Of a stretch of 64,000 nucleotides of DNA, positions 143 to 4,032 are shown in pieces. Source of the DNA: Candidatus Limnocylindrales bacterium (GTDB taxonomy: Bacteria; Moduliflexota; Moduliflexia; Moduliflexales; JAUQPW01); contig DATMBG010000017.1 in assembly GCA_035559535.1 (NCBI GenBank), positions 1-64,000 on the forward strand, read 5' to 3'. Numbering within the stretch: position 1 is the first letter of the stretch; each line of letters starts with the position of its first letter. The notes beneath the pieces were generated by a model. The model was not told the origin of the DNA. It was given only the letters and a program-made list of their open reading frames with translations, and made no database searches. Both the position numbers and the translations under genes were made by a program.

Positions 143-219
143 CAAACTCTTAAAAAATTAAAAAGTTTGATACGGGGTAGTTACGATCTCACTCAAAGGC
201 TGAAACTTCTTCCGTTCGA

Positions 220-233
220 TTTTCAAAGAGCAA
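220..233 (-). promoter_or_regulatory. rrn leader boxA antitermination element
   Basis: Minus strand TTGCTCTTTGAAAA between the promoter and 16S. Confidence 0.8.
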
Positions 234-249
234 CTTACCTTGCACTATT

Positions 250-278
250 ATTATAAGAATCCCCTTTCAATTTGTCAA
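250..278 (-). promoter_or_regulatory. rRNA operon sigma70 promoter
   Basis: Minus strand TTGACA-17 bp-TATAAT (perfect consensus), AT-rich upstream. Confidence 0.9.
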
Positions 279-402
279 GAACTTCCTCAAAAACCTGTCT
301 TTGAATTAAATTTTAATAGAAATTCTCTTGCTATAGGAAGATAAAAACCCTAAGGTTCTCTAGAACCTAACCCTATCTTTTATCCTTTGAGGAGGTAACC
401 CT

Positions 403-1482: not shown

Positions 1483-1692
1483 CTAAGATTGGAGTTTGAT
1501 TACATTGGCGGCCTGGGGGCCTTTCTCGCTCTCAATGACCTCAAACTCTACGGTTTGACCCTCGCTGAGAGTCTTAAACCCTTCTCCCTGGATAGCTGTA
1601 TAGTGCACAAAAACATCGGTATCATTTTCACGTTCAATGAAGCCATAACCTTTTGCTTCATTAAACCATTTGACACGTCCTCGTACTGACAT
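1483..1692 (-). CDS. Cold-shock protein (CspA family)
   Basis: [15 protein letters not shown] (RNP1), DVFVHY (RNP2), [17 protein letters not shown]. Confidence 0.97.
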
Positions 1693-1939
1693 AATAACCT
1701 CCTGGAAAAAAAACTTATCCTACAATGTATAAACGACATGCCCAGTAAATACAGATTTTAAAATTTGTCAAGAAATTTTTTTTCTTATTAAGAAAATTTT
1801 TTACTTGATTTTTGCCTTTTCTTCGTATTAATTAAAGTTAGGATGGTCAGACAGGGAGGAAATAGATAAAGATCCTAAGCTGAGGAAACTTAAGAATCCT
1901 CAGGATATTTAAAATATTCTTAACCAAAAGGAGAATACT

Positions 1940-2554: not shown

Positions 2555-2616
2555 GGGTTTTGGTTCGGCTTTGGAATCCGGTGCATAGACTATCCCCGGA
2601 AGGGATAAAGGGATAC

Positions 2617-2645
2617 TTGACAAATTTTGTTCCTTGCTTTATATT
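2617..2645 (+). promoter_or_regulatory. sigma70-type promoter upstream of the 5S-like element and rpoA
   Basis: TTGACA-17 bp-TATATT. Confidence 0.7.
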
Positions 2646-2787
2646 TTACTCCAGGAAAGTAGGCACTTCGTAGATAATTAACTTGGTAGAACCATCTTTT
2701 ATCTAACCGGTTTTCTTCCTTTCAGGAAAAAAGAGGTCTTCTGATATACAAGAATAAGCAAACACATCAAAACTTTAGGGCAGAAAA

Positions 2788-2907
2788 TTCCCAGTGACTA
2801 TAACAAAAGGGAAACACCTGTTTCCATTCCAGGTACAGAAGTTAGGTCCTGTAGGGCCTGCGGTCCTATAGGGCGGATTCTGTGGGGAAGCGAGTCGTTA
2901 CTGGGAA
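2788..2907 (+). ncRNA. Divergent 5S rRNA-like RNA (orphan 5S, pseudogene or leader element)
   Basis: 120 nt; terminal helix TTCCCAGTGAC/GTTACTGGGAA; 5S-like GGGAAACACCTGTTTCCATTCC..ACAGAAGTTA; helix IV-like hairpin CCTATAGGG-CGGA-TTCTGTGGG; loop C and loop E degenerate. Confidence 0.8.
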
Positions 2908-2988
2908 TTTTTTTGTTCTTTAGTTTTTAAAGCCTTGTAAAGTCTGCTCATAGGCTTGTTGCCGTGTTAGATAAGGAAAAGGGGATCT

Positions 2989-4032
2989 ATGCACTGGAAA
3001 GGTATTCAAAAACCTAAAGAACTTAAATGCGACTATGAAACGTTAACCGGAACATACGGACGTTTCTACGCCGAACCCTTTGAGAGGGGATTTGGAATTA
3101 CCATTGGAAACTCTCTGAGACGTATTCTCCTGGCCTCTCTACGTGGTATAGCGGTAACCTCTGTCAAGATCGAGGGAGTTTTACATGAATTTTCAACTAT
3201 TCCGGGAGTTGTAGAAGATGTATCTGAGATTATTCTTAATATAAAGGAGCTCATTTTAAAACCGCGTTCCGATAACCTGGAGTACCCACGGAAGCTCTAC
3301 CTCAAAGTCTCCAATTCCTCTTCAGAAAGTAAAGAGGTCACGGCTAGGGACATTCAAGGAGATCCGGATATCGAAATCCTGAATCCTGACCTGCACATTG
3401 CAACCCTGAGTAAAGAAGGGTCCCTGGATATGGAAATGGAAGTTCAGTTGGGTCGGGGTTATGTACCCAGTGAGCTCAATAAGAGAGAGGATCAGCCCAT
3501 CGGGGTTCTTCCCATCGATTCTATTTTTACACCGATTAAAAAGGTCACTTATGATGTGGATGCTTCCCGCGTTGGAGGTCGAACCGATTATGATAAATTA
3601 ACCCTGGAAGTCTGGACCAATGGGACCATATCCCCGGCCGATGCCATTGCCCACGCCGCTAAGATTCTGAAGGATCAGTTAAATATTTTTATTAACTTTG
3701 AAGAAGAACCCGAGGTTGAGGAAAAAGAGGTTGATGAAGAAGAGGAGAAATTTAATGAAAATCTCTTGAAAAGCATTGATGAATTGGAGTTATCGGTTCG
3801 ATCCAGCAATTGCCTGAACAATGCCAATATCCGGACTATAGGAGAACTGGTTCAGAAAACGGAAGCTGAACTGTTAAAAACCAGAAATTTTGGGAAAAAA
3901 TCCCTCAATGAAATTAAAACGATTCTTGCTGAAATGGGTCTGTCCCTGGGTATGAAGTTAGAGAATTTCCCACCTAAAAATAAAGGAACTTCCAAGAAAA
4001 AATCCACCACCAAGGTAGGAACATCTGAATAA
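2989..4032 (+). CDS. rpoA: DNA-directed RNA polymerase subunit alpha (stand-alone)
   Basis: [41 protein letters not shown]; alpha-[27 protein letters not shown]. Confidence 0.98.

Follow-up and report, generated by a model that had tools for sequence, protein, structure and literature searches.

A 117-nucleotide (nt) module derived from 5S rRNA lies in the leader of rpoA, the gene of the RNA polymerase alpha subunit, in a 64,000-nt stretch of DNA from a Candidatus Limnocylindrales bacterium (assembly GCA_035559535.1, contig DATMBG010000017.1, positions 1 to 64,000 of the forward strand; hereafter the window). Our best explanation, on which we remain evenly divided, is that a 5S duplicate was taken over as a cis-acting leader module of rpoA. 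A first-pass annotation of this DNA had proposed a co-opted 5S copy with a cis role in the rpoA leader, and this is the best supported of the readings weighed here because the 5' leader is connected with the ribosome-binding site (RBS) of rpoA by a conserved leader-trailer pairing.

The genome under study (G000; 5.6 Mb in 58 contigs, 95.8% complete) was compared with the only other species of its genus in the genome set, the sister species G001, and with L204, a metagenome contig of a relative whose RpoA is 92% identical to that of G000. The unit could be compared in these three lineages (n=3), two of which, G000 and G001, are nearly identical. The candidate phylum is represented by nine genomes in the set searched. 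The features of the unit in the window are as follows.

2617..2645 (+): sigma-70-type promoter TTGACA-17-TATATT, 11/12 matches; invariant in G001, conserved in L204
2652..2789 (+): leader before the 5S-derived module, about 137 nt; 2 changes versus G001, strongly diverged in L204 with insertions and deletions (indels)
2697..2710 (+): 5' half of the leader-trailer helix, pairing with 2962-2976
2784..2798 (+): 5' strand of extended helix I, 6 flank nt plus module nt 1-9; 15/15 pairs in 3/3 sequences
2790..2906 (+): 5S rRNA-derived module, 117 nt; RF00001 55.8 bits; 27 derived substitutions versus the L204 5S
2810..2825 (+): small hairpin of the predicted new fold, 6 bp closing a loop of 4 nt; pair probability about 0.86
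2827..2889 (+): predicted rod-like arm of 4-, 7- and 13-bp helices; pair probabilities 0.58-1.0, also predicted for G001
2846..2874 (+): predicted hairpin, perfect 13-bp stem and 3-nt loop; stem identical in G000 and G001
2897..2914 (+): 3' strand of extended helix I (15-pair helix), running into seven T (2908-2914); terminator-like
2940..2957 (+): spacer hairpin, 7 bp closing a 4-nt loop, not followed by a T-tract; 7/7 pairs in 3/3 sequences, with a double change at one pair and a single-sided change at another
2962..2976 (+): 3' half of the leader-trailer helix (trailer), ending 5 nt before the GGGG of the RBS (2981-2984)
2989..4032 (+): rpoA, sole copy in the genome; NF003513, 482 bits

The module is a full-length 5S duplicate altered within this genus

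The module (2790-2906, plus strand) matched RF00001 in a cmscan run on the window with 55.8 bits (E 5.6e-09, full length, model positions 1-120), above the gathering score of 38 bits, which bears out the 5S-shaped sequence that the first-pass annotation had placed between a promoter and rpoA. The promoter was recovered at 2617-2645, and rpoA starts at 2989, 83 nt after the module end, close to the roughly 80 nt first described. cmscan found no 23S match anywhere in the window, in line with the claim that no 23S remnant lies upstream; the only other rRNA match was the 5' end of 16S (first 142 nt), at 1-142 on the minus strand.

Two normal 5S genes are present in G000 (C58:74-190, 112.9 bits; C46:34166-34282, 110.2 bits), each 73 nt from a contig end. 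The module scores about half as high as these copies. It is about 73% identical to both and is not an ordinary 5S; there are no indels across the 117 nt, and its flanks resemble theirs. Within the G000 genome the leader as a whole has no paralogue, and the 5S part alone matches elsewhere.

To place the duplicate in time, we compared the same locus in the two relatives, where synteny with rpoA is kept. G001 carries a low-scoring copy at the same locus (54.7 bits) in addition to two normal copies. The L204 contig has the order csp-lexA-5S-rpoA-hemC; its 5S is normal (111.7 bits) and lies some 70 nt upstream of rpoA. The module differs from the L204 5S at 27/117 sites, and at all 27 the L204 state is that of the normal G000 copies. 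At the five sites where L204 departs from the normal copies, the module shares the L204 state every time. Given this polarity, the 27 changes are derived in this genus and arose on a copy that is positionally orthologous to a normal 5S.

The arrangement is rare. A profile built from 28 diverse 5S genes, which recovered 5/5 control loci, found a 5S beside rpoA in 2/174 public genome or metagenome loci, namely L204 and L052, a G001 contig. Among 11 further rpoA loci, L204 alone had a 5S, and a DNA search across all nine genomes of the phylum found the leader in G000 and G001 alone. In the sister family (14 rpoA loci), no Rfam match at E up to 1 was found within 1.5 kb of either rpoA paralogue, and 5S genes follow 23S in 3/3 loci examined. 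Among contigs of four DNA runs, X7 was of the G001 type, and X2 and X5 represented a third, close strain (records 95-99% alike). In 2607-2988 of this strain, 2896 C>T was the sole change among the differences listed, and it adds no covariation.

Two side observations concern the normal copies. The 5S on C58 is followed by a 12-bp classical terminator (L001 214-241) and then by a gene (279-1148) for a sigma-70 family factor, RpoD/RpoS-like and below the equivalog cut-offs; two 5S-type genes of G000 thus precede RNA polymerase subunit genes. In the G001 normal 5S (L013, L034), the helix III pair of model columns 30 and 48 has undergone the compensatory C-G to U-A exchange that is also seen in the remodelled copy, but the normal loop C is retained. 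The exchange looks like a parallel change and not gene conversion.

The block from promoter to RBS evolves slowly

To gauge constraint, we compared G000 with G001, using as a neutral yardstick the synonymous-site difference (pS) in three flanking genes together with unconstrained intergenic bins. pS was 0.275 for the dehydrogenase gene, 0.327 for lexA and 0.221 for rpoA (synonymous divergence, dS, 0.26-0.43), and the intergenic bins were 20-35% different. The differences along the unit were as follows.

Module, 2790-2906: 4/117 changes
Leader, 2653-2789: 2/137 changes
Spacer, 2907-2988: 4/82 changes
Promoter to RBS, 2607-2988: 10/382 changes
Segment 2607-2874: 2/268 changes
The 59 nt before the -35 box: 14 changes (about 24%)
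Normal 5S: 3 changes

At a pS of 0.22-0.33, 26 to 38 changes would be expected in the module, against the four observed, and module nt 1-85 are invariant. At a neutral rate of 0.22, the binomial probability of the counts was 1.3e-8 in the module and 3e-28 across the whole block. The module's rate of change is roughly a tenth of that at synonymous sites and, because the normal 5S genes of the two species differ at three sites, is now close to that of a working 5S. The onset of the conserved block is abrupt, at the -35 box of the promoter, and the block ends in rpoA, which argues against a recombination patch. By this measure of conservation the module is not a decaying pseudogene, and the null hypothesis of the first-pass annotation is rejected.

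The substitutions erode 5S sites and favour a different predicted fold

When the Rfam 5S structure was laid on the module, 30/34 pairs were still possible; the broken ones were three in helix II and one in helix V. Helix I was intact (9/9 pairs) and was lengthened by its flanks to 15 pairs, as first described. Loop C reads CCAGGT, with four adjacent derived changes, in place of the CCGAAC found in both G000 normal copies, the G001 normal copy and the L204 5S. Loop E and helix V are altered on both strands, so that the eroded loop E of the earlier description was also recovered.

Structure prediction gave the module a minimum free energy (MFE) of -53.2 kcal/mol (z -4.8; matched by 0/200 shuffles). 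With the still-possible 5S pairs enforced, the best fold reached -26.8 kcal/mol. The predicted MFE fold combines helix I with a 6-bp hairpin (2810-2825) and a rod (2827-2889) of 4-, 7- and 13-bp helices, and the stability of the closed domain is predicted at -53 to -61 kcal/mol. The G001 module is predicted to adopt the same fold (-54.5 kcal/mol), and with the same program the MFE structures of the L204 and C58 5S were the 5S fold. Pair probabilities were 0.98-1.0 for the 13-bp stem and about 0 for 5S helices III and IV. Two earlier claims thus held in part: the pairs of helices III and IV persist in that they can still form, but a different fold is preferred; and the ACCTG/CAGGT complementarity exists, but as a hairpin or switch its probability is about 0 and forcing it gives -46.2 against the MFE of -53.2 kcal/mol.

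The 27 substitutions were then mapped on the new fold from the position comparison and the predicted structure. Sixteen fall at positions paired in that fold, and no pair is broken by them: six new pairs arise from nine of the substitutions, two more make up a compensatory C-G to U-A exchange, and the other five convert pairs between Watson-Crick and G-U. The ancestral 5S already had 10/13 pairs of the 13-bp stem; all three mismatches have been repaired, and seven substitutions repair or compensate pairs in this stem. As a control, 27 substitutions, matched in their counts of transitions and transversions, were placed at random on the L204 5S in 2000 trials. The mean MFE was -38.6 kcal/mol (standard deviation 5.6), and the 13-bp stem appeared in 1/2000.

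Template switching is a mechanism by which quasi-palindromes are perfected at the DNA level. It fits poorly here: the stem contains three G-U pairs, and two of the repairs required changes on both arms. For these two reasons selection at the RNA level fits better than a DNA palindrome or a template switch. Being local, the 13-bp hairpin would be expected to fold while the 3' partners of 5S helices II and V are still untranscribed. The prediction suggests that the stable fold has shifted away from the 5S fold and that the module is probably not a ribosomal 5S.

A conserved, predicted long-range helix links the leader to the rpoA RBS

To examine how the module relates to its surroundings, we folded the leaders of G000 (2652-3000) and L204. 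The helix 2697-2710/2962-2976 was predicted independently in both, in the MFE as well as the centroid folds. The duplex energies were -20.8 kcal/mol in G000, -19.0 in G001 and -22.0 in L204, against -8.4 ± 3.2 kcal/mol for 3000 random windows of the contig, two of which were as good. All 14 pairs are kept in 3/3 sequences with two one-sided compatible changes, and no motifs are better conserved between L204 and G000 than its two halves, in a leader that has otherwise diverged and is rich in indels. Taken together, the leader-trailer helix (14 pairs), extended helix I (15) and the spacer hairpin (7) are paired in 108/108 cells of the three-sequence alignment, and sliding the partner by 1-3 columns left just 37-53% of cells paired. 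Within these three helices, four compatible changes affect one side of a pair and one change affects both.

The best duplex runs on across the RBS to position -1 in both G000 and G001. Upstream of the 5' half, at window 2671-2677, both species also carry a 7-nt copy of the trailer motif core that is absent in L204; this copy could compete for the 5' half of the helix in an alternative pairing.

Because its two halves flank the T-tract, the helix can form only on transcripts that read through it, which implies co-transcription. Its conservation thus points indirectly to a unit that is co-transcribed as far as the rpoA RBS. The T-tract itself was confirmed as seven T at 2908-2914, directly after the 15-pair extended helix I. 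The promoter/terminator scan did not call this combination a terminator, since its 'loop' is a 99-nt branched domain. A 12-bp terminator hairpin stands 24 nt after the T-tract of the C58 5S and has no counterpart at the rpoA locus. Helix I and the T-tract may act as an attenuator. A gene for RNase III is present in G000 (260 bits).

A proposed mechanism and the points against it

These observations are consistent with the following scheme. In an ancestor, a stand-alone 5S copy with its own strong promoter would have come to sit directly upstream of rpoA. In this genus, 27 substitutions would then have altered the parts that contact proteins and 23S, shifting the stable fold, and selection would now preserve the new RNA fold. 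Transcription would begin at the promoter 2617-2645 and read through helix I and the T-tract into rpoA. The 5S-derived module may fold into a closed, very stable domain, and the leader-trailer helix would close the whole module, beside the rpoA RBS or, in this genus, over it. Opening of this bracketing helix, or cutting of the RNase III type, would free a translatable rpoA mRNA, and partial termination at the T-tract might offer a further point of control. The output of alpha subunit would then be set by the promoter, by read-through and by opening or cutting of the bracketing helix.

We put forward, more tentatively, a specific form of this scheme, in which the 5S, refolded into a rod and closed by the RBS-masking leader-trailer helix, gates synthesis of the cell's sole alpha subunit from an rRNA-type promoter. 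If true, RNA polymerase production would be wired to the ribosome-synthesis programme. A bolder form of the gating proposal, in which the rod, once excised, would bind RNA polymerase itself in the manner of 6S RNA, is less likely still.

Several points weigh against a cis-acting leader module. The comparison comprises three lineages, which is too few. Transcription, read-through, processing and any effect on translation are inferred, and the fold is a prediction. As to the covariation in relatives raised by the first-pass annotation, the pairs are indeed kept in the three sequences, but covariation is not statistically established, with 169/500 shuffles reaching the observed score. Masking of the RBS is specific to the genus, without a counterpart in L204. 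The normal 5S on C46 has no obvious separate terminator, so efficient termination at helix I and the T-tract is possible, which argues against read-through. Random substitution reached -53.2 kcal/mol or lower in 17/2000 sets, which is rare and not negligible, and the substitution spectrum (16/27 are GC to AT) is what relaxed constraint and mutation bias would produce. The helices of the new fold show no variation within the genus. The four module changes in G001 are mixed (one breaks a terminal pair of the 7-bp helix, one improves another pair and two are unpaired), so G001 does not discriminate. Finally, the conservation of the module interior and its 5S-like processing flanks fit an excised trans-acting RNA equally well.

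Alternative explanations

That last possibility is the strongest rival, and we consider it unlikely. A stable RNA of about 117 nt would be excised by the nucleases that mature 5S, adopt the new fold and bind a protein or an RNA, its position before rpoA being merely historical. Such an RNA would agree with full retention of helix I and its extension, with flanks like those of the normal copies, with the invariance of the first 85 nt between the species, and with the closed and very stable domain that is predicted. It leaves unexplained the conserved leader, the spacer hairpin and the leader-trailer helix that reaches the RBS, and 2600-3000 has no match to any other Rfam family at E up to 10.

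Less probable again is a functionless 5S pseudogene, conserved by the essential leader around it or by a role of helix I and the T-tract as terminator or spacer. The loss of known functional 5S sites and the GC to AT bias are what it would predict, and 5S remnants and displaced stand-alone 5S genes are known in other bacteria (PMC7812874). Against this stand the four changes where 26 to 38 were expected and the absence of indels from 117 nt relative to the normal copies. The interior rod is invariant, the substitutions are directional toward a perfect stem, and conservation sets in sharply at the -35 box, the preceding 60 nt being about 24% different.

The first-pass annotation had also suggested a sensor for ribosomal proteins such as uL18. 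A sensor or decoy for the 5S-binding proteins uL18, uL5 and bL25, coupling alpha synthesis to ribosome assembly, would suit a 5S-derived element located in a leader, and rRNA-mimicking leaders are an established control of ribosomal protein genes (PMC7247131). We nevertheless find it very improbable, since helix II has three broken pairs, loop C four adjacent changes and loop E changes on both strands, and the predicted fold is no longer that of 5S, which lies about 26 kcal/mol above the MFE. The downstream gene is rpoA and not that of a 5S-binding protein; L5 and L18 (C7) and L25 (C3) are single-copy on other contigs, and a search for paralogues of L18, L25 and L5 in G000 returned one match each.

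A specialised 5S variant that still enters some ribosomes, another early proposal, is full-length, scores above the RF00001 gathering score, keeps 30/34 model pairs possible and has its own strong promoter, but it is just as improbable given loops C and E unlike those of both normal copies and the syntenic L204 5S, a local 13-bp hairpin that would precede the 3' partners of the 5S helices, and the energy gap of 26 kcal/mol.

Genomic context of the unit

The genes in this part of the window are, in order, a 2-hydroxyacid dehydrogenase, a cold-shock protein (minus strand), lexA, the promoter-module unit, rpoA and hemC (minus strand). The promoter at 2617-2645 is the sole plus-strand site of its kind between 1985 and 3526, and the promoter/terminator scan found no other promoter-like and no classical terminator-like site on the plus strand in 2646-3526. 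Open reading frames in 2600-2990 are just of chance size (20-47 aa) and without support. An Rfam scan of 2600-3000 at E up to 10 returned no family besides RF00001. 6S RNA (RF00013) was considered as a candidate and rejected, with no match in the genome at E up to 1, in a search whose control found just 5/14 known genomes, and none in 2600-3000 at E up to 10.

An -35 block of 11 nt is common to the promoter 2617-2645 and the promoter of the 16S operon (minus strand, about 283-255). The latter, TTGACA-type with TATAAT, lies in window 143-300 on the minus strand, upstream of the 16S 5' end at the contig start, and the same segment contains a boxA-like motif. The 5' half of the leader-trailer helix likewise resembles a putative boxA antitermination motif.

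The csp gene (1483-1692, minus strand) and its 5' untranslated region hardly differ between G000 and G001, with about 2 changes over the 250 nt of window 1601-1850. On L204, 1399-1692 (minus strand) scores 41.7 bits against the cspA thermoregulator family, below the cut-off of 78.

The assembly of G000 contains one copy of rpoA. The ribosomal protein cluster on C7 reads infA-S13-S11-S4-L17, with a 61-nt gap and no rpoA between S4 and L17 (L215 4314-5403). The alpha gene of the genus depends on the leader described here, and this dependence of the sole alpha gene explains by itself the strong constraint on the block. In the sister family each of seven genomes (7/7) has two rpoA paralogues, one between S4 and L17 and the other stand-alone. 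At several of the loci L044, L046, L047, L049 and L050 a hairpin and a T run lie about 35 nt before the RBS of the stand-alone rpoA, within a region about 35-110 nt upstream, in a position like that of helix I and the T-tract in G000; they may be attenuators or merely terminators of the upstream gene.

Relation to known systems

Intrinsic terminators and attenuators consist of a stem followed by a U-tract in a leader. The unit is like them in that a GC-containing stem, extended helix I, stands directly before seven T upstream of the regulated gene. It is unlike them in that the stem closes a 99-nt branched domain and no competing anti-terminator was identified. Eukaryotes have 5S-derived elements in the form of short interspersed nuclear elements with 5S heads and transcribed 5S pseudogenes. 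These too reuse 5S sequence outside the ribosome, but they are mobile or RNA polymerase III elements, and the literature searched yielded no counterpart in bacteria.

Ribosomal protein leaders such as that of S4 mimic the binding site by convergence and control the protein that binds. Leaders that mimic rRNA are known regulators of ribosomal protein operons, and those for S4 can precede rpsD-rpoA-rplQ (PMC7247131); the unit shares with them an rRNA-related structured RNA in the 5' leader of an expression-machinery gene. It differs in being a true duplicate of a whole rRNA gene whose known binding sites are eroded, with rpoA detached from the S4 operon. Autoregulation by an rRNA mimic places the leader before the gene of the binding protein, and here the downstream gene is rpoA.

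Orphan 5S genes reportedly occur in Francisella and Helicobacter. Bacterial 5S remnants, as characterised by Stepanov and Fox 2021 (PMC7812874), are missing one end or both, contain large insertions, are located behind terminators and are considered untranscribed. Like orphan 5S genes and these remnants, the module is a 5S copy that stands apart from any rRNA operon, carries transcription signals of its own and has diverged from the normal 5S. Unlike the remnants described there, it is full-length and free of indels, stands between a strong promoter and an essential gene, evolves slowly under purifying selection and has a new, predicted stable fold.

Leader-trailer helices are general in precursor rRNA; in PMC11404451, complementary segments flank each rRNA of the E. 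coli operon, with analyses centred on 16S and 23S. The unit likewise has a long-range helix around an rRNA-type gene (14 pairs, three lineages), in a genome with an RNase III gene. Unlike those precursor helices, it flanks a stand-alone 5S-derived unit, its trailer ends at the RBS of a protein gene, and any cleavage is putative.

The module thus shares parts with orphan 5S genes, precursor-rRNA helices and ribosomal protein leaders and fits none of them. We found no bacterial 5S-derived mRNA leader and no 5S-rpoA unit in the literature searched; the supplement of 5S remnants in PMC7812874, which lay outside that search, may hold similar cases.

Bacteria normally either lose duplicate rRNA genes or keep the copies identical. 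In this case selection seems to have retained a duplicate after a change of fold and job, and the locus shows one possible route by which structured regulatory RNAs may originate. The position of the sole rpoA outside the S4 operon, behind a 5S unit with an rRNA-like promoter, suggests that RNA polymerase and ribosome production are matched differently in this genus. The normal 5S of L204 and the remodelled copies of G000 and G001, in the same context, form a natural before-and-after pair and make this a directly testable question.

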